64,000 nucleotides of DNA from an uncultured Candidatus Saccharibacteria bacterium (GTDB lineage Bacteria > Patescibacteriota > Doudnabacteria > UBA920). A program made the position numbers and the translations under genes. Numbering within the stretch: the stretch's first letter is position 1; the number at the start of each line of letters is the position of its first letter. Location: positions 72,392 through 136,391 of the forward strand of contig CAZEKH010000004.1 in the NCBI GenBank assembly GCA_964512925.1, written 5' to 3'. Positions 12,280 through 63,771 of this stretch are shown here, piece by piece. The notes under the pieces were generated by a model, which ran no database searches, had not been told where the DNA came from, and saw only the letters and a list, made by a program, of their open reading frames with translations.

Positions 12280-13830
12280 ATGAAAGAATTTACAGCTTCA
12301 ACCGAATACAAACCCGTGATTGGGTTTGAGATACATATACAGCTTGCTACCAAATCTAAGATGTTTGGCGTGGCGCACAACAACCCGGACCAGACTGAGC
12401 CGAATATGGATATAGACGAAGTTAACACGGCGCAGCCCGGGACTTTGCCTGTGGCAAACAAAGAAGCTATAAGGATGACTACAATGGTGGGGCTTGCTTT
12501 AAACTGTCAGATAGATGAGTTTAGCAAGTTTGACAGAAAACACTATTTTTACCCCGACCTGCCGAAAGGTTATCAGATTTCTCAGTATGATCAACCCATT
12601 GCGAAAAACGGGTATTTGGACATAGAGGTGAATGGAAAAATAAAGAGGATTAACATCACCAGGGGGCACCTTGAAGAAGATGCCGGGAAAAACATTCACC
12701 CAGAAGGATTGCCTTACTCTTTGGTTGATTACAACAGGGCTGGGTCAGCGCTTTTGGAAATTGTGACTGAACCGGAGATAGAAAGCGGACAGGAAGCTTA
12801 TGCGTTTTTAAGTGAGTTAAAAAATATCGTACGCTACTTGGGCGTGTCTTCCGCAGATATGGAAAAAGGAATTTTAAGGTGTGAGCCGAGCATTTCTGTG
12901 CGAAAACCTGGGGAAACCACTCTGCCAAAATATAAAGTGGAAGTAAAAAATATCAACTCTTTTCGCTTTGCCCAGGCTGCGATTGACTACGAAATCGCGC
13001 GGCAGACCGAGATTTTAAAAGACGGCGGAACGCCCAAGCAGGTTACTATGGGCTGGAACGAAAAGCTGGGAGTGACGGTTGAGCAGAGAAGCAAAGAAGA
13101 AGCAAACGACTACCGATATTTTCCGGAGCCGGATTTGCCGGTTTTACAATTTACCCAAGAGTATTTAGATGAGCTTAAAAGAAAAATGCCGGAACTGCCT
13201 GCTCAGAAAAGGCAAAGATTTTTAGAGGAATACGGTCTGCCTAAAGCGGATGTGGAAAATTTGGTTAATTGGAAAGAATTGGCGAATTATTTTGAGGAAG
13301 TGGTGAGTGAAATAGACGAATGGATCATTGTGGAAGGTCAATCGTTCGACCTCTCCCGCCCTGCGGGCACCCTCCCCACGCCTGGGGAGGGAAAAAGTGT
13401 TATTGCTTCGCAACTCTATAAAAGCGCTGTCAATTGGTGTTTGCAGGATTTTTCCGCGCTTTTAAACCAAAATCTGTGGAATCCTTCGGATTCTTCTGTA
13501 ACCCCTGAAAATTTTGCTGAGCTTTTAGTAATGATCCAGAAAGGAAAAATTTCAACTTCTGCAGCCAAACAGGTGTTTAAAGTGATGTTTGAAAAAGGCG
13601 GAGAGCCGGACAATATAGTTTCCGACCTTGGCCTGGAGCAGGTTTCAGATACAGGAGCTATTGAATCCGCTTTGGATAAAGTCATTGCCGAAAACCAAAA
13701 AGCTGTTACGGACTACAGGGCAGGCCAACAAAAGTCTTTTGGTTTTTTGGTCGGCCAGGCAATGAAAGAGCTGAAAGGTAAAGGCAACCCGCAGATTATA
13801 AACGAAATTTTAAAGAAAAAACTTTCTTAG
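12280..13830 (+). CDS. gatB: Glu/Asp-tRNA amidotransferase subunit B
   Basis: ATG at 12280 (MKEFTAS...) overlaps the gatA end. GatB core plus YqeY-like tail. It carries a GC-rich in-frame insert (see 13350-13391). Confidence 0.9.
   Translation: MKEFTASTEYKPVIGFEIHIQLATKSKMFGVAHNNPDQTEPNMDIDEVNTAQPGTLPVANKEAIRMTTMVGLALNCQIDEFSKFDRKHYFYPDLPKGYQISQYDQPIAKNGYLDIEVNGKIKRINITRGHLEEDAGKNIHPEGLPYSLVDYNRAGSALLEIVTEPEIESGQEAYAFLSELKNIVRYLGVSSADMEKGILRCEPSISVRKPGETTLPKYKVEVKNINSFRFAQAAIDYEIARQTEILKDGGTPKQVTMGWNEKLGVTVEQRSKEEANDYRYFPEPDLPVLQFTQEYLDELKRKMPELPAQKRQRFLEEYGLPKADVENLVNWKELANYFEEVVSEIDEWIIVEGQSFDLSRPAGTLPTPGEGKSVIASQLYKSAVNWCLQDFSALLNQNLWNPSDSSVTPENFAELLVMIQKGKISTSAAKQVFKVMFEKGGEPDNIVSDLGLEQVSDTGAIESALDKVIAENQKAVTDYRAGQQKSFGFLVGQAMKELKGKGNPQIINEILKKKLS
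13350..13391. repeat. GC-rich palindromic element inserted in-frame in gatB (hairpins CCCGC-CCT-GCGGG and CCCTCCCC-ACGCCT-GGGGAGGG)
   Basis: It translates to SRPAGTLPTPGEG. The second hairpin is the C-for-T variant of the CCCTCTCC-N6-GGAGAGGG core seen elsewhere in the window. Confidence 0.6.
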
Positions 13831-13836
13831 ACAGTT

Positions 13837-14724
13837 ATGTTAAATAGAAGAGAATTTCTAACAAGTTTACTTCCTGCTTTAGCTTTTAAATCTGAAGCAA
13901 AAGAAAAAAAGCAGGATCAGGTATGGAGCGAGGGCGTTGAAAGGATGAGTATTTTGTCGAAAACTGGGGAGGTTGAGATGAGTAATGTGTTTTTACACAA
14001 ACCCGGCGAAAAGTCTAGTTGGAATCTGGAAACTATAGGTGGAGAAAGAGTGGTTTCTGCAAATAAAGCAGAATGGGAGTTTATTCGCGAAAAAATCCAA
14101 AATGGATATTTAGTCATTACCGGTCATACTCATACAAGTCAAAGTGTTGAATCCGATGTGTTAAAGCTGACCAAGCAGAATAAAAAACCGGATATGGTTA
14201 AGCTTATTTCACCACCCAGTGTGCAAGGGCTGCTCGATATGGAAGCTTCAGGTGATTTTATTTATGCTTTTGACCAAGCAATGAATATAAAAAGTTATGG
14301 ACTTCCTTCTGAGTATGTGCTAAATGCGGTTTATGATCCAGCAGGGGTTTGGGTTTTTAAGGTTGATGCTGATACGAATTTTGTTCAAGATTTACATAGT
14401 ATTTTAAAGCGAGAACAAGAGTTAAAAGTGAACAATAAGTTAACAGGCGAATCAGTTAGCGCTTTGGCCTTGGAAAAAAAACAGCTGAGAAAAAAATATA
14501 GTCTCAATCTGGAAAGAGTAGCAAGCGCTTATAGAGAAATTTTAGAAGAGAATGTATTAAGTGTTCGTCACGCGCATTCCAATATGTTTGAAGTTTCCCA
14601 AAAAGCAAACCAGGTTTGTGGTGTTTTGGGAAATTTGGGCATCTCTATGAAGTATTATCAGTATCCGGATGCTGTCAAAATAGCGCCTTTGGAGATAGCA
14701 AAAGAATTTAGAATAAAATTCTAA
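13837..14724 (+). CDS. Hypothetical protein (295 aa) with an RREFL twin-arginine-like N-terminus
   Basis: Intact ORF with no confident homology. Confidence 0.45.
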   Translation: MLNRREFLTSLLPALAFKSEAKEKKQDQVWSEGVERMSILSKTGEVEMSNVFLHKPGEKSSWNLETIGGERVVSANKAEWEFIREKIQNGYLVITGHTHTSQSVESDVLKLTKQNKKPDMVKLISPPSVQGLLDMEASGDFIYAFDQAMNIKSYGLPSEYVLNAVYDPAGVWVFKVDADTNFVQDLHSILKREQELKVNNKLTGESVSALALEKKQLRKKYSLNLERVASAYREILEENVLSVRHAHSNMFEVSQKANQVCGVLGNLGISMKYYQYPDAVKIAPLEIAKEFRIKF

Positions 14725-14726
14725 AA

Positions 14727-14778
14727 AAAGTGCCGCCCGGGAAATTCGCCAACAGGCGAATCATCCGGGCGGTTTTGT
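14727..14778. terminator. Bidirectional terminator, nested hairpin GCCGCCCGG...CCGGGCGG
   Basis: A-run before and T-run after; it lies between convergent genes. Confidence 0.6.
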
Positions 14779-14780
14779 TG

Positions 14781-14993
14781 TCAGGGGTCACCGTATTTGC
14801 CCATCAAGATGTCGGAAACGACTTGAGCGAAGGCCTCATCGGTCGTCACTCCATTTAGCTGGGCTTGTTTGAAGGCCGTTAGTGAATAATCGATGATTGG
14901 GTTCCTGTCCGGGGCTTTTTCCCAGATCATAACCCCGTCTTTCATTTTGCAGATAGAAATCACTTGGGACCCGTCACGTGTGACGTAAGGCAT
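14781..14993 (-). CDS. Small hypothetical protein (70 aa) in a GC-rich island
   Basis: ATG at 14993 (MPYVTRDG...) with SD AAGGAG 6 nt upstream. GC is clearly above the neighbouring genes. Confidence 0.5.
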   Translation of the reverse strand: MPYVTRDGSQVISICKMKDGVMIWEKAPDRNPIIDYSLTAFKQAQLNGVTTDEAFAQVVSDILMGKYGDP

Positions 14994-15006
14994 GCACACT
15001 CCTTTC
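14988..15006 (-). promoter_or_regulatory. Hairpin that sequesters the SD of the small GC-rich gene (ACTCCTTT-TTG-AAAGGAGT on the mRNA)
   Basis: Perfect 8-bp stem whose right arm contains the AAGGAG SD. Confidence 0.4.
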
Positions 15007-15022
15007 AAAAAGGAGTATATAT
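15006..15022. repeat. (TA)8 dinucleotide microsatellite
   Basis: tatatatatatatatat. Confidence 0.9.
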
Positions 15023-15044
15023 ATATATATATCAGTTATTTTTT

Positions 15045-15083
15045 GCAAATAAAAAGAAGGGCACCCTCTTGCATTGCAAGAGG
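15045..15083 (-). terminator. 39-nt perfect palindrome (AGAAGGGCACCCTCTTGCA / TGCAAGAGGGTGCCCTTCT); probably the terminator of the miaA transcript
   Basis: Perfect inverted repeat, with an A-run on the plus side giving a T-run on the minus strand. Confidence 0.5.
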
Positions 15084-15273
15084 GTGCCCTTCTGGTGTAT
15101 TAATTATTTTTCGGATTGATGTTTTTGGGTTTAGCGTCGTTATTTTCTGGCTTTGTATCCGGGTGCAAATTTCTTAGACCAAAGGTTTCTTCGGTTAAAC
15201 CAAGCCCTCCGCATTGAGCTGGGTCTTCTCTTAGTGGATTGAAGTCAATTTCGTATTTTGGTTTTGGTATAAG

Positions 15274-16305
15274 TTAATGAATAAATTTTTTTATTAATTT
15301 TTCCGCTGTTTTTATGTTTGGTTTGATCCAGTGGATTTCCTGATTTTTTTTCCACCAGGTAAGCTGGCGTTTGGAGTAGTGTTTGATTGCGTAGGATAGT
15401 TCGGTTTGCGCGATATTCCACACCCTTCTAACCTCCCGCCTCAAGGGGGAGGAAATGTTTATATCGGGGTATTGTTGTAAAAATTTTGCAATGTACCGGT
15501 ATTCCAGACCGAATTGTTCTAATCTTTTCCAAGATAGCGCGGAACGGCGCGGAATTTTACGCGGAACGGCGCGGAAACCTTTATGCAGATTTTGTACTTC
15601 TTGGATCATTCCATCTTTTATTCTTTGTTTCAATCTTTTGTCGATTTTTTCATACAAAGTTTTTTGCGGCAAGATTGTGCCGATCCAGAGCGTATCATAT
15701 TTGCTGAGTACTGATGACTGAGCACTGATGACTGGGACAGGTTTACCTGTTGTGGCGATTATTTCTAAAGCGCGTATTAGTCTTCGTCTGTTATATCTGT
15801 CTATGGTTTTTGCGCGCTCTGGGTCCAAGCGAACTATTCGTGCGAATAGTTCCTCAGTGGATAGTTTTTCTAGTTCTTTGCGGAGCTTCGGGTTGGGTTT
15901 TACTTCGGGTATGCTTTGGTTAAAAACCACGGCGTCTATATAGTGCATACTCCCGCCGCAAAGTATTGGCAGTTTTCCGCGTTTTAAAATATCAGTTATA
16001 GCTTTGTCCGCGGCTTTTTTAAACCGCGAAACAGAATATTGGCGTTTTGGCGAGACAAAGTCTATGAGGTGGTGGGGGATGGATTTATAGTAAAATTGAA
16101 AATTTAATGATTTAAAGATTAAAGATTTTGGATTTTGAACCTTTTTCCAAACGCCAGGAACTTTTCCTGTGCCTAGGTTTAGGCCGCGGTAAATCTGCCG
16201 GCTATCGCAGGAGATTATTTCGCCGTTAAATTTTTTTGCTAAGGCTACTGCCAACTCGCTTTTACCTGAAGCTGTGGGGCCGACAATAATAATTATCTTA
16301 TTCAT
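15274..16305 (-). CDS. miaA: tRNA dimethylallyltransferase MiaA
   Basis: P-loop GPTASGKS and DSRQIYRGL; a C-terminal extension is present. Confidence 0.9.
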   Translation of the reverse strand: MNKIIIIVGPTASGKSELAVALAKKFNGEIISCDSRQIYRGLNLGTGKVPGVWKKVQNPKSLIFKSLNFQFYYKSIPHHLIDFVSPKRQYSVSRFKKAADKAITDILKRGKLPILCGGSMHYIDAVVFNQSIPEVKPNPKLRKELEKLSTEELFARIVRLDPERAKTIDRYNRRRLIRALEIIATTGKPVPVISAQSSVLSKYDTLWIGTILPQKTLYEKIDKRLKQRIKDGMIQEVQNLHKGFRAVPRKIPRRSALSWKRLEQFGLEYRYIAKFLQQYPDINISSPLRREVRRVWNIAQTELSYAIKHYSKRQLTWWKKNQEIHWIKPNIKTAEKLIKKFIH

Positions 16306-16551
16306 TATGACCGATCTGTATTAAAAATCTTTTATAAATATATTATTTTACAATTAATTTTTTTCCAGCGTGCGGGTTTTTTAACTTTAAAGACGCTCCC
16401 GAAAGTTTCATTTTTGGGCGTTTTTTAATTTCCCGCCTTTTGGCTTTTGTCGGGTATTCGTCAAAGATTTTTTTTCTCATAAAATGTCAAAAAAGAAATA
16501 TCAATTTTAGGTATGATATAATTATATTGCAAGATAAATAAATATACAAAG

Positions 16552-17082
16552 ATGAAAAATAAAATTTTCCCGTTGATATTAGTCCTTATTTTAGGCGGTG
16601 TGGCGAGCTATTTTTGGTATGATTCCAAGGAGAGAACAGTTTTGGCGCCAATACTGCCTGAAAAAAATAATTTGGAAAAAACACAGCAAGATTTAAGCCA
16701 GGGTCAAAAGCCTGAGCAGACAGAAAAACCGGTCGTAACATCTACACCAAAGCCTACCTTAGCACCTTCTCAAAGCTCAGGGGTGTTTTCCAGCGGTGAA
16801 GAGGTGGATGCGCCAGATATTTTGGTTTTAGAAAGCATTTTTGACGGCAGTAGTTTTAGTCCAAAAATTCTTGACATCAAAGCCGGGGATATAATCATTT
16901 TCAGAAATACTTCTAAAGTTCCTTTAAAAATAAAATCTATTGACTCAAGTTACTTAGAGTTTGATTCGGGCCAGGATATTTTACCCGGAGCAAAGTTTCA
17001 GTTTAAGTTTGAAAAAACCGGCTCGTGGCAATATTCGGATGAAAGATACCCGGATGCTGTAGGCCGGGTAAATGTAAAATAA
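16552..17082 (+). CDS. Hypothetical membrane-anchored protein (one N-terminal TM segment, Pro/Thr linker, C-terminal beta-rich domain)
   Basis: Intact ORF with a terminator after it. Confidence 0.45.
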   Translation: MKNKIFPLILVLILGGVASYFWYDSKERTVLAPILPEKNNLEKTQQDLSQGQKPEQTEKPVVTSTPKPTLAPSQSSGVFSSGEEVDAPDILVLESIFDGSSFSPKILDIKAGDIIIFRNTSKVPLKIKSIDSSYLEFDSGQDILPGAKFQFKFEKTGSWQYSDERYPDAVGRVNVK

Positions 17083-17088
17083 GTAAAT

Positions 17089-30388: not shown

Positions 30389-30479
30389 TAATTTTATTTT
30401 ATATTCACTTCCTGCGCTTCTCGGGTTGTGAACAAGAATAAAATTAATTGGTTTTTCAACCTCTCTGCCCTTTGGGCAT

Positions 30480-30498
30480 CTCTCCAAGTCTTGGAGAG
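30480..30498 (+). promoter_or_regulatory. Conserved hairpin CTCTCCAAG-TC-TTGGAGAG in the rplK leader (same element as 56549-56567)
   Basis: Perfect 8-9 bp stem; preceded by a second hairpin TGCCC-TTT-GGGCA. Confidence 0.5.
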
Positions 30499-30515
30499 AA
30501 AAATAAGGAAATGCT

Positions 30516-36570: not shown

Positions 36571-38256
36571 ATGTTCACTGAAGAAGAAAAAAAAGTTTTA
36601 CAAAAATTTGTCACTTCTGCTGAAGATAATATTTTTGCCATACGCGGGATGCCCGGGATGGTTGGGGCGGCGTATGCCCGTTATAGCAGGGCCAAGGGCG
36701 GCTTTAGAGAAGTATTGCTTAAAGAGTTTATAGAAGCTGGCAATATTGATCCCAAGCACGCTGACGAGCTGATTGCCAGGGTCTTGGTTGCGTACGGGGA
36801 CGACTCAGTGGGCGAGCTTGAAGGCGCGCATATCAGTTTTGAAAAAATATCAATGCTGGCGGCTAAAGAAATTGAAGATCGCAGGATCGGAGGAAGTCCG
36901 ATTGAGCAGTCTACCCGTTATGTTCTCTATGACCAAAAAACCGAGGATGGAAAATGGCTGTATTATAGGGGCGATGATGTGCTTAAAACCTCCTTTGGAA
37001 AATTGTATGAAGAAACGATGGATTTTATTTTTCAGACCTATTCAGAATTAGTTGAGCCTTTAAAAAAACATTTGGAAAATCAAAAGCCGTTGTCTGAAGC
37101 GGAATATGATATAAATGGCGATGGTAAAAAGGAGCTTTTAAGCGAATTGACTGATGACAAGCAGATCAAAGCTTTTAAACAAACTTATACTTTTGAACTG
37201 AGGGCTAAAGCTTGTGATATTTTAAGGTCTTTTTTGCCCATAGCCACCCTGACAAATGTTGGGATGTTTGGAAATGGCAGATTTTATCAAGGATTGATTT
37301 CTTATCTTCTAACTACTGATTTACCGGAAAATCACAGTGTGGCGGCGGGCGCTCAGAAAGCTTTGTCAGAAATTATCCCTCAGTACATAAGACGCGCTCA
37401 GAGAAGCGAGTACATAGCGGAAAATCGCCGGGCGATGTTTAGTTTAACCAAAGAAATGTTAAAAAGCCATAAAGCCCATCCGCCTTTGGAATTGCCAGAG
37501 TTTGTTTTACAAGACAGGGGAGAAAAAATTATAGAAAAAATTATTAAAGAAGGCGGTTTGGTGGAGAATGCTTTAAACCGAGCGGAGGAAATTTCGCTTT
37601 TAGCAATGATGCTATATTCATATAGTGATTTTGCTTTAGCTGATTTGAGACTGATTGTGGAAAATTTGTCTGAAGAGGAAAAAATAAAAATATTCCAAAC
37701 TTATATGGGAGAAAGAAAAACCAGAAGAGATCGTCCCGGCAGGGCTATGGAAGACGGTTATTCGTATAATTTTGATATGGTTACCAATTTTGGGGTTTAT
37801 AAAGATTTACAAAGGCACCGGATGAATACCCAAACCCGCCAGTTGTTTACAACCAAGCTTGGTTTTTTTTACGCGCCTGAACTGGAAGCTGTGGGCGCGA
37901 TGGAAAAAGCGAAATTGTGTGTGGAAAAATCCAATCAATTGTTTGAAAAAATGCATTTGGAAAATCCGGAACTAGCTCAGTATGCGGTGCTGCACGGGCA
38001 TTATATCCGCTGGTATATGGGTTTTAACGACCGAGAAGCTATGCATCTTTTAGAACTTCGTTCAACACCGCAAGGTCATCCGAATTACAGGCAGGCCGCT
38101 CAACAAATGCATAAATTGATCTTAGAAAGGTCAGAGCCAAGAGGTTCGGCTATGAAGTTTGTGGATCACAATGAATACTACTGGTCAAGGGCGGACAGCG
38201 AAGCCAAGCAGCGGGTTAAGGAAGCCGAACTTGATAAAAAATTCGGGAAAATTTAA
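36571..38256 (+). CDS. thyX: Flavin-dependent thymidylate synthase ThyX, tandem double-domain fusion
   Basis: The N half carries RRIGGSPIEQSTRY (RHR-x7-S-x-RY with H replaced by R). The C half carries DLQRHR with an altered Ser region. The protein is about twice the usual ThyX length. Confidence 0.6.
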   Translation: MFTEEEKKVLQKFVTSAEDNIFAIRGMPGMVGAAYARYSRAKGGFREVLLKEFIEAGNIDPKHADELIARVLVAYGDDSVGELEGAHISFEKISMLAAKEIEDRRIGGSPIEQSTRYVLYDQKTEDGKWLYYRGDDVLKTSFGKLYEETMDFIFQTYSELVEPLKKHLENQKPLSEAEYDINGDGKKELLSELTDDKQIKAFKQTYTFELRAKACDILRSFLPIATLTNVGMFGNGRFYQGLISYLLTTDLPENHSVAAGAQKALSEIIPQYIRRAQRSEYIAENRRAMFSLTKEMLKSHKAHPPLELPEFVLQDRGEKIIEKIIKEGGLVENALNRAEEISLLAMMLYSYSDFALADLRLIVENLSEEEKIKIFQTYMGERKTRRDRPGRAMEDGYSYNFDMVTNFGVYKDLQRHRMNTQTRQLFTTKLGFFYAPELEAVGAMEKAKLCVEKSNQLFEKMHLENPELAQYAVLHGHYIRWYMGFNDREAMHLLELRSTPQGHPNYRQAAQQMHKLILERSEPRGSAMKFVDHNEYYWSRADSEAKQRVKEAELDKKFGKI

Positions 38257-41766: not shown

Positions 41767-42189
41767 ATGACTGACAATATTCCTTTGGAAGAAAATATTG
41801 ATTTGGACAAAAACACAAGACTGAACAGCCTTTTGAAGTTTTTGGTTTTAACTTTTTTAGCCTCTGGTATGGTTTTGGTTGTGCTTCGGCAGATTGAGGT
41901 TTACTACCGCGATCAAATTTACATAGCCACGCAAGTAACATTGCCGGTGCATAAACAGGCCAGTAGATCAGTTGGTCAGAATATCAGTAAGTCAGATAAT
42001 CAGTTAATCAGTGGAAATGATTTATTTAAAGTATGTCCTACTGATTGGATAGTAAATAAAATGCCGGTGATAGATAAAAATCAGCCTGAGGAGTATTATA
42101 TTTTAGACGGCAAGAGGTGGGAGATTTCGGAGTTTGATGTGGGGTGGGTAAGAGAAAATTGTGATGTAAAACCTCAGGCAGTTTACTAA
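41767..42189 (+). CDS. Hypothetical protein (140 aa, one TM segment)
   Basis: Intact ORF. Confidence 0.4.
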   Translation: MTDNIPLEENIDLDKNTRLNSLLKFLVLTFLASGMVLVVLRQIEVYYRDQIYIATQVTLPVHKQASRSVGQNISKSDNQLISGNDLFKVCPTDWIVNKMPVIDKNQPEEYYILDGKRWEISEFDVGWVRENCDVKPQAVY

Positions 42190-42212: not shown

Positions 42213-42330
42213 CCCCCTCTCCTATATAGGAGAGGGGTGGGGTGAGGTTTGAGCGATGGTAATAAGACATAAGTTTAATCAATTTTTTAACATTGTTGCC
42301 TCACCCTGCCCTCTCCGAGTTTGGAGAGGG
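42213..42330. mobile_element. MITE-like composite: two copies of the GC-rich palindromic element in inverted orientation flanking a 51-bp AT-rich core
   Basis: Left copy CCCCTCTCC-TATATA-GGAGAGGGG-TGGGGTGAGG. Right copy CCTCACCCTG-CCCTCTCC-GAGTT-TGGAGAGGG. Confidence 0.55.
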
Positions 42331-44064: not shown

Positions 44065-44077
44065 TATGTAGCTTGAA

Positions 44078-44112
44078 TTTAAAAACCTTCCGAAATATCG
44101 GAAGGTTTTTAA
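44078..44112. terminator. Bidirectional terminator between pyrG and rpmA
   Basis: AAAACCTTCCGA-AATA-TCGGAAGGTTTT. Confidence 0.7.
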
Positions 44113-44116
44113 ATTC

Positions 44117-44489: not shown

Positions 44490-45827
44490 CTAATTTTTTT
44501 CAAATATTGCTATTTCCCTGGCCACTATCTGGTCTTTTCTGTCGTAGATAGCAGTGCCTCTGGCGCTTAGCCTCAAAAATTTCATTTTTTTAGCTATTTT
44601 TGCCGGGATTAAGGCTATTGAATTATATCCTAAAGTACTCGCCCAGTCAAGGGAGGGGAGCATAGTATAAGAATCTCGCCCTTTTTTATAGGCTGGGATA
44701 CACATCACTATTTTGGCTTTTTCCGGCAAAAAAAGGCTAAATTCTTTAAAGGCTTTTTTATAGAGCCTTATTAAGTCGTCAAAATTCATTTCTATTTCTT
44801 TTTGTGTCGGATAGGCTGAATACACAGGTCCCAGTGTGCCTTCTGTAACAATGGCGCTGATTTTCGCTCCTGAGTCGGTAATTAGCTTATTTAAACCCTG
44901 GGTAGCGTCTGAAACCTCCAAACCGAATTTACTTTGCGAGATATGATAGCGATTTTTAAACCATTCTAAATTTTGAATACTGCCTTTGATGGCAAATTTG
45001 TTGATATCCGAACCGATCATCCTAAAACCTAAAAGCAGGCCTTCTTGGATCATAGTGCCAATGCCGCAAAAAGGGTCCAGGATGGTGTCATTGGTTTTCG
45101 CGCCAGATAAATTTAGCATTACTTGCGCAACTTTAGGCGGAATCATTCCCTGTTTTTCGTCTCGTATAGGCCTTTGGTAGTCGCGCCTGCCATAGTCCTC
45201 AAAATCCTGAACCACCAGAGTTTTGGCAGTATAGAGGATTTCTTCTCCAGCTAAAATGCAAATTTCCGAGCCTTTTTCCAAAAGTAAATTTTTAGTAACA
45301 GCAACTGACGCAAGTGATAAAGAATTCATTTCCGGCAAAACCAGCCTGGCGCTAAAGCCCATATCTGTCAGAGTTTTTTTAACCATCATACCCAGCCTTT
45401 TTGGCTCGGAAAAAATATTCATTGAAGGCATACCGTTTTTTGAGGCCTCCGGTTTGTCCGCAAGTTTGCGGTTTAGCAGGTAAACGCTAAGTCCAAACTG
45501 AATTTTTCCCTTATACTCTTTGAGAAATTGTTTCTTAAGGAGGCTTGGCCTGAAATAGTGTTTTAAGGCAAAGTTCAAAGAATCCTGAGGCCGTTTTTTT
45601 ACCTCATCTATTACTTGCAGGATTTTTACTACGCCCCCGAGATTTTTTTGCAGTTTGTGAACATTGATTGCTTGAGGTAACTCTACTAACAAAATTTCTT
45701 CCGAGGCGCAGACAATTTCCGGCTCAAGCCCGGTAAGACCCAGGGAGTCGTCTTTTTTATTTAGCAATTCTACGAGTTCAGCGATGGAAAGCGTGTAAAC
45801 CCTGCCTAAAACAAAAGCGTATTTCAT
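44490..45827 (-). CDS. THUMP-domain class I SAM-dependent RNA methyltransferase
   Basis: SAM motif DPFCGIGT and an N-terminal THUMP-like region. Confidence 0.55.
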   Translation of the reverse strand: MKYAFVLGRVYTLSIAELVELLNKKDDSLGLTGLEPEIVCASEEILLVELPQAINVHKLQKNLGGVVKILQVIDEVKKRPQDSLNFALKHYFRPSLLKKQFLKEYKGKIQFGLSVYLLNRKLADKPEASKNGMPSMNIFSEPKRLGMMVKKTLTDMGFSARLVLPEMNSLSLASVAVTKNLLLEKGSEICILAGEEILYTAKTLVVQDFEDYGRRDYQRPIRDEKQGMIPPKVAQVMLNLSGAKTNDTILDPFCGIGTMIQEGLLLGFRMIGSDINKFAIKGSIQNLEWFKNRYHISQSKFGLEVSDATQGLNKLITDSGAKISAIVTEGTLGPVYSAYPTQKEIEMNFDDLIRLYKKAFKEFSLFLPEKAKIVMCIPAYKKGRDSYTMLPSLDWASTLGYNSIALIPAKIAKKMKFLRLSARGTAIYDRKDQIVAREIAIFEKN

Positions 45828-53202: not shown

Positions 53203-54150
53203 TCAAACCTGGGAAGATTTAATTTTGTATTTAATCAGTTCGGATACAAGGCCCCAAGTTGCGTGGAAAATCCTTTTATATCTTTTGGGCTGGGTTAGAA
53301 GTCTCCATAACCATTCCAGACCCATTTGAGCTAGTATTTTTGGAGGCTTTGGGTATATGCCGGCTAAATAATCAAAAGTTCCGCCAACGCCCATAACCAA
53401 ATTGATGCTTGAAAGTTTTGGCAAATTTTCCAAAATCCACTTCTCCTGGCGGATAGGTCCAAACGCAACAAATAAAATATCAGGGTTTGCGATGTTTATA
53501 TCATCAATAATTGACACATCCTCGGGATTTTTGTTTGAATATTGAACCCTGATTTTTTGATCTGCTGATCTACTGATCAACTGTTCCGCTGCCAATTTCG
53601 GAGTTTCCCCAAATCCTCCAAGTAAATAAATTGACCAGTTATTTTTTTCCGCAAGCTCTGCAATGTCAGAAACTAGTTCTCGTCCCGGGATTCTTTCTAT
53701 TTGCGTACCAAGCCCCCTCCCCTGCCCTCCCCCGCCTGTGGCGGGAGATGGAGAAAAAAAAGGAAAGGCAAATTTGATTAGCACAGCTAACGCTTGAAAG
53801 TAGGCTTTAAAAATTATTTTCCAGTGGTTAACATTTTCTAGCTTGCCTTTGAACTTATTTTTTTCCCCTCTCCCCGAATCAGATGGGGGGGGAGAGTAGG
53901 GTGGGGGTGTGGGTGGTATTTCCAAATATGTTTTTGCCCACAAAATCCCAATACCGTCAGCTAGGGCAATGTCAGCTTTGTTTAGCATTTCTAAAATTTG
54001 TTTGTCGCGTAAAGCAGCATACAAAAATTCTGAGTACAAAGTCGTTACCCAGGTTTTTTGTTTGTTTCTAATATTTTTTTCTAATTCTTTCAGTAATTCA
54101 GGTTTAGAAAAGTTGTTAATCTTAAGTCCCGCAACATCAATTTTTTGCAT
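53203..54150 (-). CDS. WecB/TagA/CpsF family glycosyltransferase carrying an in-frame insertion of about 70 aa
   Basis: Conserved ADGIGILWA and VMGVGGTFDY blocks. The insert is PTPPPYSPPPSDSGRG...GGGGQGRGLG. Confidence 0.7.
   Translation of the reverse strand: MQKIDVAGLKINNFSKPELLKELEKNIRNKQKTWVTTLYSEFLYAALRDKQILEMLNKADIALADGIGILWAKTYLEIPPTPPPYSPPPSDSGRGEKNKFKGKLENVNHWKIIFKAYFQALAVLIKFAFPFFSPSPATGGGGQGRGLGTQIERIPGRELVSDIAELAEKNNWSIYLLGGFGETPKLAAEQLISRSADQKIRVQYSNKNPEDVSIIDDINIANPDILFVAFGPIRQEKWILENLPKLSSINLVMGVGGTFDYLAGIYPKPPKILAQMGLEWLWRLLTQPKRYKRIFHATWGLVSELIKYKIKSSQV
53709..53917. mobile_element. MITE-like insertion of about 210 bp inside the tagA-like gene: C/G-rich inverted termini around an AT-rich core, read through in frame
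   Basis: The right end contains CTCTCCCC-N12-GGGGAGAG (family core). The left end contains CCCGCC-TGT-GGCGGG. Confidence 0.55.
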
Positions 54151-56471: not shown

Positions 56472-56548
56472 ATTCCCTTTTAAGTGATAAAAAAACGTGG
56501 TGGATAAATAAAGTTTTAAATATATAGAAACATAACCTCTCTCTAACT

Positions 56549-56567
56549 CTCTCCAAGTATTGGAGAG
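56549..56567 (+). promoter_or_regulatory. Conserved hairpin CTCTCCAAG-TA-TTGGAGAG immediately upstream of fmt (same element as at rplK)
   Basis: 18 of 19 nt identical to 30480-30498. Confidence 0.5.
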
Positions 56568-56577
56568 AGAAACTATA

Positions 56578-57522: not shown

Positions 57523-57529
57523 ATTAAAA

Positions 57530-57570
57530 CAATGTCAAGGGTGACCCTTGACATTGTTGCTTTTTGATTT
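57530..57570 (+). terminator. Rho-independent terminator after fmt
   Basis: CAATGTCAAGGG-TG-ACCCTTGACATTG followed by a T-rich tail. Confidence 0.7.
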
Positions 57571-58557: not shown

Positions 58558-59001
58558 TTAATTTTGCGCAATTATTTTGACCCACACTTCCCTGTTTCTG
58601 CCGCCGTCCAGCTCTACGAAAAATACGGTTTGTTTTGCTCCTAACAAAATATCGCCTTTTTCAATGATCAAATTTTCCGAGTTTCCCAGTAAAAACGCTT
58701 TGACGTGGGCGTGGCCGTTGGAGCGCTCGTTGACCGCCACATTTAGCCTGACTTCAAACAAGTCGTGACTGTAACTGGTATCCAGCGGCACTGTGCGGTA
58801 TAACATCTTCATAAAATCCTGAACCAGCAAAGTTTCGTTGTTGTTGATGCGGATAGCTCCGGTGGTATGCGGACAAAAAACCGTTACAATCCCCTCTTTC
58901 ACCCCGCTGTCTATAACAAATTTGCGGATATGGTTGGTTATATCCACCATCTCAAACTGCTTTTTGGTTTCAAGAAAGATTTTATTTACTGGTTTGCTCA
59001 T
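58558..59001 (-). CDS. yjbQ: YjbQ/UPF0047 family protein
   Basis: VFCPHTTGAI signature. Confidence 0.8.
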   Translation of the reverse strand: MSKPVNKIFLETKKQFEMVDITNHIRKFVIDSGVKEGIVTVFCPHTTGAIRINNNETLLVQDFMKMLYRTVPLDTSYSHDLFEVRLNVAVNERSNGHAHVKAFLLGNSENLIIEKGDILLGAKQTVFFVELDGGRNREVWVKIIAQN

Positions 59002-59029
59002 GATTATATTATATCATAAATAATAATAC

Positions 59030-59055
59030 AAAACCCCGCTTTATGGCGGGGTTTT
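59030..59055. terminator. Bidirectional terminator AAAACCCCGC-TTTATG-GCGGGGTTTT
   Basis: Perfect 10-bp stem. Confidence 0.7.
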
Positions 59056-59083
59056 ACAAATCTATTAAATAGTCAGCGGAATT

Positions 59084-59356
59084 TTACAGGATTGCGTCTT
59101 TGGCGGCTTTGAGAACGCGGAATTTGATAACGGTTTTAGCAGGGATTGAGATGCTTTCGCCGGTTGCTGGGTTTCGTCCCATTCTGGCCGGGCGGTGCTT
59201 TTTCAAAAGTTTGCCAAGTCCCGGGATGGTGAATTCGCCTTCTTTTTTGGTAACTGTGTAAGCCATATTGGCTAAAGCATCCATAAACTCACCAGCTTGT
59301 TTTCTGGTTACGCCAAGTTTTTCGGCGAGAGCTTGGAGCATTTCTGACTTTGTCAT
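59084..59356 (-). CDS. hup: Nucleoid protein HU
   Basis: MTKSEMLQALAEK...GRNPATGE. Confidence 0.9.
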   Translation of the reverse strand: MTKSEMLQALAEKLGVTRKQAGEFMDALANMAYTVTKKEGEFTIPGLGKLLKKHRPARMGRNPATGESISIPAKTVIKFRVLKAAKDAIL

Positions 59357-59555
59357 TTGTTTGTGTCCTTTTTACCCCTTATATTTGTTAAGGAGTATAA
59401 ATAATTTTTTTAACTTGTAATTTAATATTAACAGAAAACCCAATAAAATCAAGTGATTTTAAGAGAAAGTGAGAAAAATTTGCAATTTTTAGTTTTCAAT
59501 TTTCAAAAGACAATAATTTCAGCTTAAATATGAGAAAAAATATATAAAATATTTT

Positions 59556-60650
59556 TTAAAGTATTAGCATTCCATCGCCAAAAGAGAAGAAACGCATCTG
59601 TTTTTCCATAGCTTTTTGATAGATATCCAATAGTTTTTTTCTTCCAACCAATGCCGAAACCAACATCATTAGACTGCTTTTTGGCACGTGGAAATTGGTT
59701 ATAAGCCCGTCTATGAGTTTAAATTCATACGGCGGGTAGATAAACAAGTCGGTTGTACCAGAGAGTTTTTTTGTTTGGGCGTAGGATTCAAGAGTGCGAA
59801 GGCTGGTCGTGCCTACAGCAAAAATGGGACGTTTTTGTTTTTTAGCTTTTACGATGAATTCAATAGTTTTTGGGTCAATGAAATACTGTTCGGTATGTAG
59901 CTTGCCGGTTTTGAGTTGCTTTGGCGTTAATGGAGCAAAAGTTCCTAGCGATACGTCGAGGCGGACAAACTTTATGACTATCCCCTGCTTTTTCAAGTCG
60001 GTTAAAAGTTTTTTTGTAAAATGCAAAGAAGCGGTGGGGGCGGCTACGGACTCTCCAGTTTTGGCAAAAACAGTTTGGTACGCTTTCTGTTTTTGTTTTT
60101 CAGTCAAAGGTGAATGCTTAATATACGGAGGCAATGGTGTTTGGCCGTATTTTTTCAGGATTTGCGGGAATTGTTTTATGTCAAAATTAGGTTTTAAAAA
60201 ATAAGTTCCCCCGTCTTTTTTAACGACTGTCAATGACAAAATTTTACGGCTTTTTGAGCTTTTGATTGGAATAGTTAGGATAGAATTTAAAGTAAGTTTT
60301 TTGTTTGAAAGAGCTTTGATCATACCTCCCCTAACCCCAGCCCGACGAGTTCGTTCTGGCGGGCCTCCTTGATAAGGAGGGGAAAATAAAATGGTACCTA
60401 AATACAATAGCTCCACTTTTCCGCCGGTTGGTTTTAAAACAGGCAAACGGGCTGGTAAAACTCTGGTTTGATTGAACACTAAAATCGCGTTTTTCGGCAG
60501 ATATTTTCCAAGATTTTTAAAAATGTCAAAAGATAGGGTTTCATTTTTGCGGTCATATACCAAAACCCTCGCGCTATCGCGAGGATGGGTCGGTTTTTGG
60601 GCTATGAGTTCTGGGGAAATTTCGTAATTAAAATCTTCTGTTTTTATCAT
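59556..60650 (-). CDS. queA: S-adenosylmethionine:tRNA ribosyltransferase-isomerase QueA
   Basis: Typical QueA N-terminus. Contains a GC-rich in-frame insert (SPPYQGGPPERTRRAGVRGG). Confidence 0.9.
   Translation of the reverse strand: MIKTEDFNYEISPELIAQKPTHPRDSARVLVYDRKNETLSFDIFKNLGKYLPKNAILVFNQTRVLPARLPVLKPTGGKVELLYLGTILFSPPYQGGPPERTRRAGVRGGMIKALSNKKLTLNSILTIPIKSSKSRKILSLTVVKKDGGTYFLKPNFDIKQFPQILKKYGQTPLPPYIKHSPLTEKQKQKAYQTVFAKTGESVAAPTASLHFTKKLLTDLKKQGIVIKFVRLDVSLGTFAPLTPKQLKTGKLHTEQYFIDPKTIEFIVKAKKQKRPIFAVGTTSLRTLESYAQTKKLSGTTDLFIYPPYEFKLIDGLITNFHVPKSSLMMLVSALVGRKKLLDIYQKAMEKQMRFFSFGDGMLIL
60324..60382. repeat. GC-rich hairpin element (CCTCCTT-GAT-AAGGAGG plus flanking GC-rich sequence) inserted in-frame in queA
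   Basis: GC far above the gene background; perfect 7-bp stem. Confidence 0.5.
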
Positions 60651-60656
60651 ACAAGT

Positions 60657-61190
60657 TTAGTAGTCTTGTTGCTTGGAAAAATCCACATTTCTAATTTTTT
60701 GAATTGTAGTTTTTAGGTTTGAAATATAATCATTTATATTCACTTTGGATTGAGAAATATAGAGATTATATAAAATACTCTTAACTCTCAATGTTTGAGG
60801 ATGGTCAGGGTTTTGAGCATAAGAATTTAAAATTTGAAAAAAATCCGCCAAGAGTTTTTTTAGCTTATCGATTTGCTCATCTATATTTTTTGGTATAACT
60901 ACTCCTTGCTTTCTTTCAATGAAATCAATCCCAAGATTCTGACCTATAGCTGTTTGAATTGCTTGTTCTTCAGAAAATCGGCTGCTAGTTAAGGTTTTGT
61001 AGAATGTATTAAAAGCCGTTGCTTCAATTGAATTACCAGGCTGGTGTATAAAATTTGCGCAATTTAGTAGAAGTGTTTCAATCCTTGGTATTAGTCTTTC
61101 TAGTTCAAAAGCTAGCATTTCCAGTCTATTTTTGTTATTTTCAGGTTTGGAAAAAAATGATCTTAGTCTTTCAAAATTAGGTCTGAACAT
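60657..61190 (-). CDS. Hypothetical protein (177 aa)
   Basis: Intact ORF. Confidence 0.4.
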   Translation of the reverse strand: MFRPNFERLRSFFSKPENNKNRLEMLAFELERLIPRIETLLLNCANFIHQPGNSIEATAFNTFYKTLTSSRFSEEQAIQTAIGQNLGIDFIERKQGVVIPKNIDEQIDKLKKLLADFFQILNSYAQNPDHPQTLRVKSILYNLYISQSKVNINDYISNLKTTIQKIRNVDFSKQQDY

Positions 61191-61199
61191 ATGTTTATA

Positions 61200-62057
61200 T
61201 TAATGTAATATTATTTTTACTACTTCCACCAAGCCCCAAATAGCGAGGCCTAGGAAAGCTAAAGTGCCGAGAAAAGAAATCCAGGAGTTTTTTACAAGTT
61301 TGACTGTTTTAGCAGGGTTTAAAAAAAGAGCAATATTTAAAAGCGTATGAGCGCCTATAACTCCAATGCTAAATCCGAGCACATTGACTATGGAAAAGAG
61401 CGGCACATAGCCGGCAAAGTCGTCTAAACCCAGTATAAAAGGAACAGTAAAAGAAAAAAAGAGTAACTTTTTCCAAGGCAAGGCGGATGAGCCTTTCATC
61501 TTTTCTCCCAAATCCGGCAAAACCTTTGAAAGTATCGGCCTGATATATTTTAAAAGAGAGCTTAAAAACTTGTCTAAACCTAAAAATATATATTTTTTAA
61601 ACTTTCCTTCCGCTTGCCAATTGGAAAAATGTTCCAGTCCTGAGTAAGCTAGCTCAAAGAGCACCAAAGAAGCGATAAGAACCATTATTGCCAAAAGCCA
61701 TTCAATTTCTTTGAAAAATGTCCAAACTATCAAAATAATTGCCGTGCCGAGGGCGTTGCCCACGGCTGTGCCGATTTCTATGGCTACGCGATTTTTCCAG
61801 CCTGGGTTTGTTGCCATCAGCCTGCCCATAAAAATGGCAAAGTCTACGGCCGTTTTAAGATAAATGGTTCCGCCTATCAGGATATCGTACCAACGGATTT
61901 GTAAAAGAATATCCTGTCCCCGGGTAATCCCGTTTAAGCCTAAAACAGTTAAGGTTAAAAGCCCTGTTAATACAAAAAAAACCACCACTGTCATACTTAA
62001 TGGTATAACTTGGCTATACAGAAAAGGTTCGTTGGTTTTTTGGGCAGGGTTTTGCAT
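61200..62057 (-). CDS. Polytopic integral membrane protein (TerC/DUF475-like)
   Basis: 7-8 TM segments. Confidence 0.4.
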   Translation of the reverse strand: MQNPAQKTNEPFLYSQVIPLSMTVVVFFVLTGLLTLTVLGLNGITRGQDILLQIRWYDILIGGTIYLKTAVDFAIFMGRLMATNPGWKNRVAIEIGTAVGNALGTAIILIVWTFFKEIEWLLAIMVLIASLVLFELAYSGLEHFSNWQAEGKFKKYIFLGLDKFLSSLLKYIRPILSKVLPDLGEKMKGSSALPWKKLLFFSFTVPFILGLDDFAGYVPLFSIVNVLGFSIGVIGAHTLLNIALFLNPAKTVKLVKNSWISFLGTLAFLGLAIWGLVEVVKIILH

Positions 62058-62065
62058 ATTGAGAT

Positions 62066-63229
62066 TTAAAAATATTTTTTATCTTTTAACTTCTCAGGCA
62101 GAAAGCTGGCGGATTGGTCATCGGAAGAACCATATCCCAGATCTTTCATCAGTTGGGTCGGGGCATTCCTTATATGAAGGGGTACGGGAAGATTGCTGAA
62201 ATTTTTGACGTCAGCCTGGGCTGCGCGAAGAGCGTCATAAGCAGAGCGGTCTTTTTTGCAGTTTGCCAGGTAAGCGGCGCCGTGGCTGAGGTTTATGGCG
62301 CATTCGGGGTAGCCGATTTTTTCACAGGCCGCAAAAACCGCAGTAGCAACCACCAAAGCAGTAGGCTGTGCCAGTCCGATGTCTTCTGAAGCAAATATTA
62401 CCATTCTTCTGGCGATAAATAAAGGGTCTTCGCCGGATTCCACCATTCTCGTCAGATAGTAGATTGCGGCATCTGTTTGTCCCGCGCGCATAGATTTGAT
62501 GAAAGCAGAAATAGTGTTGTAATGTTCTTCTCCGGCTTTGTCGTATCGCAAAGTTTTTGACTGTAAGGTTTGTTTGAGATTTTCAAGAGTGACAGACCCG
62601 TACAGGCTGATACAATTTTCCAACATTGACAAAACTTGCCTGGCATCCCCTCCTGACATTGACACTAGCCACTGTTTTTCACCCTCTCCGATATCGGAGA
62701 GGGTTGGGGTGAGGTTACGGATAGCATTATTTATTATTTCTCCAATTTCTTCCTCATTTAACTCATTTAGCACAAAAACCCTGCAGCGGGACAAAAGCGC
62801 GGGGATGACTTCAAAGCTCGGGTTTTCCGTGGTTGCGCCGATCGAAGTCAGCTCGCCAGACTCTACATAAGGCAAAAGGAAATCCTGCTGAGCTTTGTTA
62901 AAACGGTGGATTTCGTCCAGAAAAAGAATCTTGGGTGTATTGGACAGATAAGACTCATTGGACTTATAAGATTTATTTTCAATTATTTTCCTGATATCTT
63001 CTTTCCCAGCGCTGACTGCGGAGAGTTCAAAAAATTCAGCATTCAGTGCTTTTGCATATATCCTCGCCAGGGTGGTTTTGCCCACGCCCGGCGGTCCCCA
63101 CAGCAAAAAACTAAACAAATGTTTTTGTTCTATGGCTTTTCTTATGGGTCCGTCCTCCCCTACCAAATGCTTTTGACCAATATAATCTTCAAGGGTTTGG
63201 GGTCTGAGTTGTTGCGCTAGTGGCTGCAT
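62066..63229 (-). CDS. rarA: Replication-associated recombination protein RarA/MgsA (AAA+)
   Basis: Walker A GPPGVGKTT, Walker B LFLDEIH and a GGDAR arginine finger. Contains the in-frame palindromic element. Confidence 0.85.
   Translation of the reverse strand: MQPLAQQLRPQTLEDYIGQKHLVGEDGPIRKAIEQKHLFSFLLWGPPGVGKTTLARIYAKALNAEFFELSAVSAGKEDIRKIIENKSYKSNESYLSNTPKILFLDEIHRFNKAQQDFLLPYVESGELTSIGATTENPSFEVIPALLSRCRVFVLNELNEEEIGEIINNAIRNLTPTLSDIGEGEKQWLVSMSGGDARQVLSMLENCISLYGSVTLENLKQTLQSKTLRYDKAGEEHYNTISAFIKSMRAGQTDAAIYYLTRMVESGEDPLFIARRMVIFASEDIGLAQPTALVVATAVFAACEKIGYPECAINLSHGAAYLANCKKDRSAYDALRAAQADVKNFSNLPVPLHIRNAPTQLMKDLGYGSSDDQSASFLPEKLKDKKYF
62681..62714. repeat. Palindromic element ACCCTCTCC-GATATC-GGAGAGGGT-TGGGGTGAGG in-frame inside rarA
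   Basis: Encodes TPTLSDIGEG just upstream of the GGDAR motif; same family as 42213-42247. Confidence 0.65.
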
Positions 63230-63295
63230 ATATTTTAGTATAACAAAAAACCCGCATAGGTGTGTACCTGGGCGGGTTTAGGGTTTATGGTTGCA

Positions 63296-63679
63296 TTAGA
63301 ACCAGAAAGAAGAGATAAACATTGAGTGGATTATGAGCACGGCGCCAAGCAGCCCCATATTTTTCGCAAACTGAACTTGCTCCATCATTTTTTTAGTTGG
63401 GTCGGTTTCTTTCCAGAAAGCGTGCATCATAAAAGTTACTGGAACTAAAAACAAAACCAGCGCCAAAGTTCCTAAACGCACGTATTCACCGAGCAGGATG
63501 GAAGCTCCGCCTAGTAAGAGTAAAACACCGCTGGCTAAAACCGCCTGCTTTGGTTGAGGTACGCCTTTAAAGTGGGTATAACCTGACAAGCTTTCGAGGT
63601 TTGCAAAATGGTTGTAGGCGTTGTATAGAAAATATCCGCCCAGCAAAATTCTGCCTAGTAACATTATATCTGCTGACAT
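63296..63679 (-). CDS. doxX: DoxX family membrane protein
   Basis: LLGRILLGGYFL... Confidence 0.75.
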   Translation of the reverse strand: MSADIMLLGRILLGGYFLYNAYNHFANLESLSGYTHFKGVPQPKQAVLASGVLLLLGGASILLGEYVRLGTLALVLFLVPVTFMMHAFWKETDPTKKMMEQVQFAKNMGLLGAVLIIHSMFISSFWF

Positions 63680-63747
63680 ATGTTGATTTGTTTCTTGTCT
63701 TTTTAAGACAGTTAGTTGATGTTAAATTTTTTTAGAAGTTGGCATTT

Positions 63748-63771
63748 TACCCTCTCCTCGCCAGGAGAGGG
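63748..63771. repeat. Intergenic copy of the palindromic element ACCCTCTCC-TCGCCA-GGAGAGGGT
   Basis: Perfect 9-bp stem with a 6-nt loop. Confidence 0.65.

Follow-up and report, generated by a model that had tools for sequence, protein, structure and literature searches.

What are the short GC-rich hairpins that lie scattered through a housekeeping stretch of a 39% GC bacterial chromosome, and how can several of them sit inside essential genes that stay open? The question is raised by 64,000 nt of contig CAZEKH010000004.1 (positions 72,392 to 136,391), which were analysed as a whole and are called the window here; they come from Candidatus Doudnabacteria, a lineage of the Patescibacteria or candidate phyla radiation (CPR). 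In a first-pass annotation the hairpins had been taken as a possibly new family of palindromic repeats, likened to the Rickettsia palindromic elements (RPEs) and partly regarded as miniature inverted-repeat transposable elements (MITEs). The family is already described: judged by their sequence, the window loci are copies of the G/C-rich intrastrand triplex motif known as BoxC, PIT or TM_ECO (PMC4666352), and their in-frame colonisation of genes extends what is described for it. We consider it probable, at roughly 0.62, that these triplex motifs are non-autonomous selfish DNA with in-frame, lineage-specific copies and with the DUF559 nuclease as candidate partner.

Architecture and identity of the repeat

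As the first-pass annotation had proposed, the scattered GC-rich hairpins are a real family; the window has about ten copies in all. The pattern CCCTCTCC-N4-7-GGAGAGGG was matched exactly four times in the window (42215, 42309, 62682 and 63750) and never in 100 dinucleotide shuffles, and CTCTCC-N3-9-GGAGAG was matched six times, again with no match in the shuffles, the extra sites being those at 30480 and 56549. A third segment had been overlooked in that annotation. The hairpin is followed by the tail GGGGTGAGG at 42239 and 62706, and GGGTGAGG stands inverted at 42299; the tail TGGGGTGAGG is a mirror of the purine arm placed after a 3-nt loop, GGAGAGGG being followed by GGGTGAGG with one A answered by T. 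The complete unit measures 31-36 nt: a homopyrimidine arm is joined through a loop to its complementary homopurine arm, and a further loop of 3 nt leads to a G-rich mirror of this second arm.

A triplex scanner was purpose-built, since a generic inverted-repeat listing gave only the palindrome at 42214 (I17) among its 25 longest pairs. Its rule was pyrimidine arm, loop, purine arm, loop and mirror (G over G; A or T over A), and it picked out 7-8 loci in the window where dinucleotide shuffles gave 0-0.5, which again puts the family far above expectation; the loci are 13350-13391, 30460-30499, 42214-42248, 42299-42330, 53713-53747, 56536-56569 and 62682-62714. Polarity is strict, with seven class II and no class I elements in the window and 14 against none in other Doudnabacteria loci, class I being the reverse order of mirror, purine arm and pyrimidine arm. 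The hairpins listed by the first-pass annotation are all present, the one at 63750-63771 as a hairpin only and the one in queA in degenerate form, and its two 19-nt palindromes at 30480 and 56549 are in fact the hairpin parts of full three-part elements on the minus strand.

The second loop has 3 nt in four copies (GTG, CAG, TTG and TTA) and is replaced in two others, those of gatB and rplK, by a small nested GC hairpin (TGCCC-NNN-GGGC). Three canonical copies match CCCTCTCC-N6-GGAGAGGG-N3-GGGTGAGG, with all 24 stem bases in common and with unrelated loops, and a GA-rich subfamily has the stems CTCTCTCC / GGAGAGAG / GAGAGAGG. The mirror rule is kept with different stems (GGAGAGAG / GAGAGAGG, GGGGAGG / GGAGGGG, GGGGGAG / GAGGGGG, GGGGAGG / GGTGGGG and GGGGGAGG / GGAGGGGG), and such covariation across three strands indicates that the folded or mirror architecture is conserved and not one particular sequence.

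BoxC was first described in the 1990s (Bachellier), was found anew by Hoyne and Maher (2000, 2002) as PIT elements and was studied as TM_ECO by Holder et al. 2015 (PMC4666352). The published pattern is CCCTCNCCC-N3-6-GGGNGAGGG-N3-GGGNGAGGG with 9-nt stems, an example from Table 1 for E. coli being CCCTCTCCCTTCCAGGGAGAGGGTCGGGGTGAGGGT, and 23 copies were counted in E. coli K-12 and 3,610 across 262 proteobacterial genomes (PMC4666352). The E. coli copies have variable loops, occur in both orientations, form five inverted pairs and are all intergenic; as a single strand the E. coli motif folds in vitro into a stable purine-motif triplex (circular dichroism, nuclear magnetic resonance), its third strand running antiparallel along the purine arm. 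In E. coli it was found to have neither promoter nor terminator nor other regulatory activity and no link to mobile elements, and it was associated with local genome instability (PMC4666352).

The window copies agree with this motif in the order of the segments from pyrimidine arm to G-rich mirror, in nearly identical stems down to which A takes T in the third strand, and in being dispersed and multi-copy with variable loops, both orientations and tails-inward inverted pairs. Their stems measure 8 nt (CCCTCTCC / GGAGAGGG / GGGTGAGG) whereas those of E. coli measure 9 nt, and the published pattern therefore misses them by the outermost base; an element on a related Doudnabacteria contig (L125 128-167) comes closer, with a second loop of 4 nt if the stems are counted as 9 nt and of 2 nt if they are counted as 10 nt. 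Further differences are the GA-rich and nested-GC-hairpin subfamilies of Doudnabacteria, the host, a CPR bacterium of 39% GC, and the location: about half of the window copies are intergenic and the other half are translated inside genes, whereas the 23 copies of E. coli K-12 are all intergenic. A strictly intergenic location is a property described for the E. coli copies and not part of the structural definition, and it does not hold here, with five copies within gatB, queA, rarA and tagA. Outside the window, the exact 26-base motif was found at no fewer than 120 loci, i.e. at least 120, of many phyla in a scan of one genome per species, and the matches listed include Pseudomonadota, Chloroflexota, Cyanobacteria, Bacteroidota, Planctomycetota, Omnitrophota, Nitrospirota, Myxococcota and others.

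Copies read in frame and their turnover

Five copies are read in frame, one each in gatB, rarA and queA and two in the tagA-like gene. The identities of these genes were confirmed, all four open reading frames (ORFs) stay open across the elements, and alignment with orthologues of GatB, RarA, QueA and TagA shows the coding copies to be lineage-specific, so that the proposed colonisation of essential genes is borne out. Identical stems in intergenic DNA and in genes mark the repeat as a multi-copy DNA element and not as a protein motif.

The gatB copy (13339..13398, core 13350-13391, minus strand) reads CCCTCCCC-AGGCGT-GGGGAGGG-TGCCCGCAGGGC-GGGAGAGG in its core, TGCCCGCAGGGC being the nested hairpin, and was established from the translation, the orthologues and the triplex scan. 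It encodes the lineage-specific 20-residue segment QSFDLSRPAGTLPTPGEGKS, unique among 120 close orthologues, which carry varied inserts of their own at two hotspots. Between its helical and YqeY domains the window protein is longer than GatB in the PDB by about 35 residues, and the insert falls at the junction of two aligned PDB domains. The rarA copy is a canonical 33-nt unit (62682..62714, plus strand, the gene being on the minus strand; CCCTCTCC-GATATC-GGAGAGGG-TTG-GGGTGAGG) and is translated as LTPTLSDIGEG at residues 173-183. Most RarA proteins of Doudnabacteria read ..IIKQS-KVKIS-KEAK-WL.. where the window protein reads ..NNAIRNLTPTLSDIGEGEKQWL.., seven residues longer than most orthologues, and an AlphaFold model places the added peptide in the loop that connects helices 159-172 and 182-192, where the predicted local distance difference test (pLDDT) dips locally. 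The gatB and rarA copies do share the codon phase pointed out earlier (ACC CTC YCC ... GGR GAG GGN), which is without statistical weight because there are only two cases.

In queA the copy is decayed (60331..60382, minus strand) and consists of the hairpin CCTCCTT-ATC-AAGGAGG, a GC hairpin and the G-rich tail TGGGGTTAGGGG, without adherence to the third-strand rule. It lies inside a lineage-specific insert of 20 residues, ILFSPPYQGGPPERTRRAGVRGG, which is missing in two relatives, one of them having a different in-frame copy elsewhere in QueA. A relative's QueA carries at about residue 38 an in-frame GA-rich element with a nested hairpin (L124 5024-5069, ..PSKFTLSKTWREYPPQVGERGL..), and as the insert sites differ, queA was hit independently in the relative and in the window.

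The tagA-like gene had been thought to contain a single 210-bp MITE with inverted termini (53709-53917). Its two elements are a degenerate copy (53713..53747, minus strand; CTCCCGCC-ACA-GGCGGGGGAGGG-CAG-GGGAGGGGGC) encoding the loop ..SPSPATGGGGQGRGLG.. at about residues 133-155, and a second, more decayed copy (53866..53917, plus strand; CCCCTCTCCCC-GAATCAGAT-GGGGGGGGAGAG-TAGGGTGGGGGTGTGGGTGG) encoding ..PPTPPPYSPPPSDSGRGE.. at about residues 78-98. The apparent 70-residue insert relative to the solved TagA is mostly a segment conserved in all Doudnabacteria TagA, and in an AlphaFold 2 model this segment is a confident helix (residues 99-128) flanked by the element stretches as separate coils, with pLDDT of about 55 at residues 133-155 and of 61-67 at residues 78-98. 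The single MITE unit was rejected on the orthologue alignment and the structure model, because the interior is ancestral and the element stretches are separate; two independent insertions lie around the conserved helix. As an observation on the gene itself, the TagA/WecG homologues of Doudnabacteria (P0242-P0360) mostly have a C-terminal NUDIX fusion and about 440 residues, and the window protein (53203-54150, 315 residues) is without NUDIX.

The expectation that the inserts would map to surface loops agrees with the low-confidence loops in the RarA and TagA-like models and with the interdomain junction of GatB. Inserts of at least 6 residues, enriched in P, G and S, were counted in 47 of 120 RarA, 63 of 120 GatB and 33 of 120 TagA orthologues, and all seven RarA inserts checked in the DNA of four relatives proved to be triplex-type motifs. 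The inserts account for numerous unusual P/G/S-rich stretches and differences in length among CPR proteins and mark insertion-tolerant sites in GatB, RarA, QueA and TagA, and the Doudnabacteria data show that the motif steadily supplies the essential proteins of a reduced genome with loop insertions.

The likeness to Rickettsia RPEs holds as a functional analogy, because here too lineage-specific in-frame insertions of housekeeping genes fall in loops or at a domain junction. Both are selfish-looking palindromic repeats which leave the ORF open and add a peptide at tolerant sites. RPEs have about 100-150 bp and long hairpins, and are grouped in the sequence families RPE-1 to RPE-8. Compared by description only, the RPEs are genus-specific, whereas the triplex unit has 31-36 nt with a third mirror segment and is pan-bacterial. 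Nor are in-frame copies limited to this lineage: in other phyla the exact motif is translated within the genes for HsdR, a MiaB-like enzyme, UDP-galactopyranose mutase, a GH43 hydrolase and a DNA methylase, with the same peptides as those of the canonical unit's open frames, so in-frame residence is not peculiar to CPR. No paper on in-frame triplex motifs in CPR was found in a literature search which left subscription journals mostly outside its range.

The canonical unit of 33 nt equals 11 codons; a stop, the TGA of GGGTGAGG, occurs in a single frame of the six, and the peptides from open frames are LTPTLS..GEG, PSPQPSP..GEG or PSP..GEGWGEV. In-frame copies in loops and interdomain linkers of essential proteins would survive selection because the unit is 11 codons long, five of six frames are stop-free and the encoded P/S/T/L...G/E/G peptide is flexible.

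By sequence comparison, related genomes gain and lose copies on a short timescale. The RarA proteins P0010 and P0068 (95% identical) are distinguished by two inverted motifs with new stems, inserted as a pair, and P0023 and P0029 (93% identical) differ by a 63-nt block with one motif; blocks of 57-63 nt appear at once between near-identical orthologues, and the insert positions vary between genomes at the same loop hotspots. These recent RarA insertions showed no target-site duplications, and gains between orthologues of 93-95% identity can be used to define the insertion junctions. A relative with 72% protein identity has the window's rarA copy in the same place, with 32 of the 33 nt identical. 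The recent gains, this conserved copy and the stems shared by copies with unrelated loops together suggest rapid gain and loss alongside a constraint on the stems at the nucleotide level.

DUF559 nuclease genes and the explanations weighed

The best candidate for the acting enzyme would be the DUF559 nuclease (PF04480), a Vsr-like protein of the PD-(D/E)xK type. In a Gastranaerophilales PriA locus two motifs flank an inserted DUF559 domain, and in E. coli K-12 BoxC number 9 (1351205-1351239) lies 168 nt downstream of ycjD, which is annotated as DUF559 (L126, NC_000913.3 1350300-1352000). The C-terminus of E. coli YcjD was seen to read ..RRSPSP. A DUF559-first test was made by a metagenome scan that gave 80 DUF559 loci (L127-L206), and a motif was present within 400 nt of the DUF559 domain in 66 of them, the density being 2.20 per kb near DUF559 against 0.17 per kb farther off, a 13-fold difference. 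Copies upstream of the domain were 44 on the plus against 7 on the minus strand, about 40 nt away, and copies downstream were 43 on the minus against 9 on the plus strand, about 16 nt away. Both tails of the bracketing motifs point inward and the median outer-to-outer length is 426 nt; the DUF559 gene has about 300 nt, its ORF mostly terminating in or just past the downstream motif, and the left motif often has another stem type than the right one, reminiscent of the A + B pairs of E. coli. Longer open frames contain 17 of the units, and Pfam places in-frame DUF559 in MetH, HrpA, PriA and a methylase, besides a fusion to Fpg (loci including L051 2408-2850, L166, L132 and L128).

It may be from such units that the repeats are mobilised. 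A unit of about 430 bp, made of the DUF559 gene and two inverted motifs, can itself reside within a gene in frame. Solo copies, as well as inverted pairs without an ORF like 42214/42299, would derive from these units or serve as their targets, and the enzyme would act on them in trans, a nick at the folded structure leading to copying through repair. The pair 42214/42299 has the same tails-inward geometry as the bracketing motifs. It is tempting, though we hold it tentatively and as somewhat doubtful, to go further and regard BoxC-type motifs as the cis-acting ends of pan-bacterial selfish DUF559 elements of about 430 bp, by which thousands of solo and paired motifs, including the translated copies of Doudnabacteria, would be mobilised in trans, the system being adapted to genes through stop-free frames and flexible linkers.

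By analogy, the arrangement of DUF559 and motif mirrors the relationship between REP-associated tyrosine transposases (RAYTs) and repetitive extragenic palindromic (REP) sequences. As in REP/REPIN-RAYT systems there are short structured repeats, inverted doublets, a small enzyme gene flanked by inverted copies and far more repeats than enzyme genes; the differences are that the flanked gene is the DUF559 nuclease and not a Y1 enzyme, that the repeat has a triplex-type third segment, and that the action of DUF559 on the motif is putative. In the window no Y1_Tnp gene was found, and the gene flanked elsewhere is PF04480 DUF559. The homing endonuclease I-Bth0305I has been grouped with VSR/DUF559 (PMC3424549), and Vsr-like homing endonucleases offer a second likeness, namely a small nuclease gene of the same fold class, found here in frame in host genes (PriA, MetH, HrpA). 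The DUF559 units differ in being without intron or intein context and in that homing is putative, and the extra domain apparently stays in the host protein, attached through linkers that the motifs encode.

Several points weigh against selfish motifs with a DUF559 partner. The triplex was not detected in vivo in E. coli (PMC4666352). Identical stems with unrelated loops among the window copies resemble purifying selection on the stems and not recent copying, so that a host function is possible, and the rarA element is the most conserved 33-nt window of its gene (32/33 against a mean of 23.4 in the comparison with the relative named above). A hidden Markov model built from 80 sequences detected no DUF559 gene or remnant, either in the window or in some 38 kb of DNA from other Doudnabacteria loci, and DUF559 was nearby in 1 of 120 motif-selected loci among the matches listed; this scarcity is expected for non-autonomous elements and is also compatible with no link. 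The bracketing fits equally well with DUF559 genes homing into pre-existing motif pairs, no target-site duplications were evident around 31 DUF559 units, and no clean empty/filled site was found for a unit. In this organism DUF559 is no more than a candidate for the cognate enzyme, the window containing only the ORF-less pair geometry at 42214/42299 and no PF04480 unit with a plus-strand motif upstream and a minus-strand motif downstream.

The lengths of the 31 units show no bias to multiples of three (residues 0, 2 and 1 in 13, 11 and 7 units). The fabI-ycjD-sapF region was also tried as an empty/filled site and rejected: fabI-BoxC-ycjD-sapF is kept in 3,346 of 5,426 E. coli genomes and 2,080 hold less than 80% of the query, and in the one O157:H7 genome examined homology stops about 40 nt before BoxC and a different island follows, i.e. 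the segment is replaced without clean excision or insertion. The same literature search, with subscription journals mostly outside it, found no paper linking DUF559 or YcjD with BoxC.

Among the other explanations, the strongest, although unlikely, is that the repeats are structured DNA or RNA signals of benefit to the host and under selection, such as pause sites of replication or transcription, nucleoid-protein sites or hairpins for translational control at ribosome-binding sites, with the coding copies tolerated or useful as linkers. The uniform stems with differing loops suit it, as do two copies which abut or supply the ribosome-binding sites of rplK and fmt, and the rarA element, besides its overall conservation, is unchanged at 9 of its 10 synonymous third positions, where the background rate is 53% (roughly p = 0.02). 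Against it, copies are present in some and absent from other orthologues of 93-95% identity, and they change position between genomes at the same loop hotspots; their placement relative to genes is not consistent, no copy resembles an intrinsic terminator, the terminator-like hairpins of the genome being of a different kind, and the regulatory assays in E. coli were negative (PMC4666352).

The first-pass annotation's own reading now seems improbable. In it the repeats would be palindromic transposable elements of RPE or MITE type, bearing terminal inverted repeats and dependent for movement on a classical transposase gene located elsewhere, and 42213-42330 and 53709-53917 would be MITEs. This reading would account for the dispersed, multi-copy occurrence, the inverted pair 42214/42299 and the in-frame insertions in essential genes known also from Rickettsia RPEs. 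The interior of the tagA segment is ancestral, however, and target-site duplications are absent from the recent insertions and from the surroundings of the DUF559 units, so that neither a unit bounded by terminal inverted repeats nor its duplication was observed; no transposase, integrase or Y1 (RAYT) gene was recognised among the 68 ORFs of the window, which therefore holds no related autonomous insertion sequence and no cognate transposase. A 33-nt unit is far shorter than RPEs or MITEs, and terminal inverted repeats leave the conserved mirror repeat unexplained. The inverted pair at 42213-42330 is real and matches the inverted pairs of E. coli and the geometry of the motifs around DUF559 genes.

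Still less credit is given to repeated de novo origin by replication slippage or template switching at purine-rich tracts without any copying. The very diverse stems and unrelated loops of the Doudnabacteria copies would be natural under it, but template switching yields inverted and not mirror repeats, three window loci share all 24 stem bases, the same 26-base motif occurs in many phyla, and whole blocks of 57-63 nt were gained at once between near-identical orthologues. An artefact of assembly or binning, in which chimeric reads of GC-rich organisms entered an AT-rich metagenome-assembled genome, is suggested by GC-rich patches in a 39% GC genome from such a source and can practically be set aside: all host ORFs are open, an identical TagA protein is recorded from two sources, the same rarA element is present in an independent assembly of another sample, and analogous inserts occur in dozens of independent assemblies.

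Non-autonomous selfish motifs with DUF559 as candidate partner are the explanation we prefer. Since the 1990s BoxC / PIT / TM_ECO has lacked a known origin, a known mobiliser and a known function, and the bracketing of DUF559 genes supplies a concrete hypothesis that is testable in E. coli K-12 on YcjD and BoxC. We regard this association as the most valuable lead of the analysis, by which an old orphan repeat becomes a testable system; the reading of the motifs as ends of DUF559 elements, if true, would explain both an orphan repeat of E. coli and an orphan protein family (YcjD).

Intergenic copies and gene content of the window

The GA-rich intergenic copy at 30460..30499 (minus strand), seen in the motif count and in the triplex scan, reads TCTCTCC-AAGACTT-GGAGAGA-TGCCCAAAGGGCA-GAGAGG with TGCCCAAAGGGCA as nested hairpin, and stops 5 nt short of the ribosome-binding site of rplK. 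A second GA-rich intergenic copy with a perfect mirror lies at 56536..56569 (minus strand; CTCTCTCC-AATACTT-GGAGAGAG-TTA-GAGAGAGG). The plus-strand GGAGAGAG arm of this copy is likely the Shine-Dalgarno sequence of fmt, whose start is probably ATG 56578 and not TTG 56560, and an mRNA hairpin could occlude the ribosome-binding site of fmt or rplK.

The left canonical copy of the inverted pair (42214..42248, plus strand; CCCTCTCC-TATATA-GGAGAGGG-GTG-GGGTGAGG) is intergenic, upstream of pyrG and downstream of an unannotated 140-aa ORF (41767-42189). The right one (42299..42330, minus strand) reads CCCTCTCC-AAACTC-GGAGAGGG-CAG-GGTGAGG on its strand, and the spacer of 51 nt, toward which both third-strand tails point, contains no ORF. 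The hairpin-only relative at 63750..63771 (no strand assigned; CCCTCTCC-TCGCCA-GGAGAGGG, extended by TTTTA/TAAAA) is intergenic, upstream of doxX, and lacks the third segment.

The window is a core chromosomal stretch whose nearest relatives by protein are Doudnabacteria, with a GC content of 35-45% and a coding share of about 90%. The 68 ORFs examined are housekeeping genes or without known role, e.g. comF, clpB, secA, gatCAB, mreBC, rplKA, pyrG, gltX, fmt, queA and rarA, and scans of the window for Rfam families, tRNA and tmRNA gave no matches. Inverted repeats of a different kind, perfect or near-perfect, lie at 15055-15093, 44075-44116 and 57528-57558 with stems of 19, 19 and 14 bp; the latter two scored as terminator-like, and the first, which was outside the ranges of the terminator scan, includes TGCCC/GGGCA, resembling the nested hairpins of two triplex elements.

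An ORF of 445 residues (44490-45827) between rpmA and a gene without assigned role has DNA methylase motifs (N6_N4_Mtase / UPF0020), and no partner restriction enzyme was recognised for it. In the ThyX-like ORF (36571-38256, 561 residues) the Thy1 domain matches residues 397-517 only, in two stretches, and the long N-terminal part is without assigned family. The ComF-like ORF (392-1576) has its ComF match restricted to residues 180-393; its N-terminal part carries a GC-rich hairpin with a 12-bp stem (ACGCTGTCCCCG...CGGGGACAGCGT) and other GC-rich patches of non-triplex type, especially at 1274-1317 and 1494-1615.

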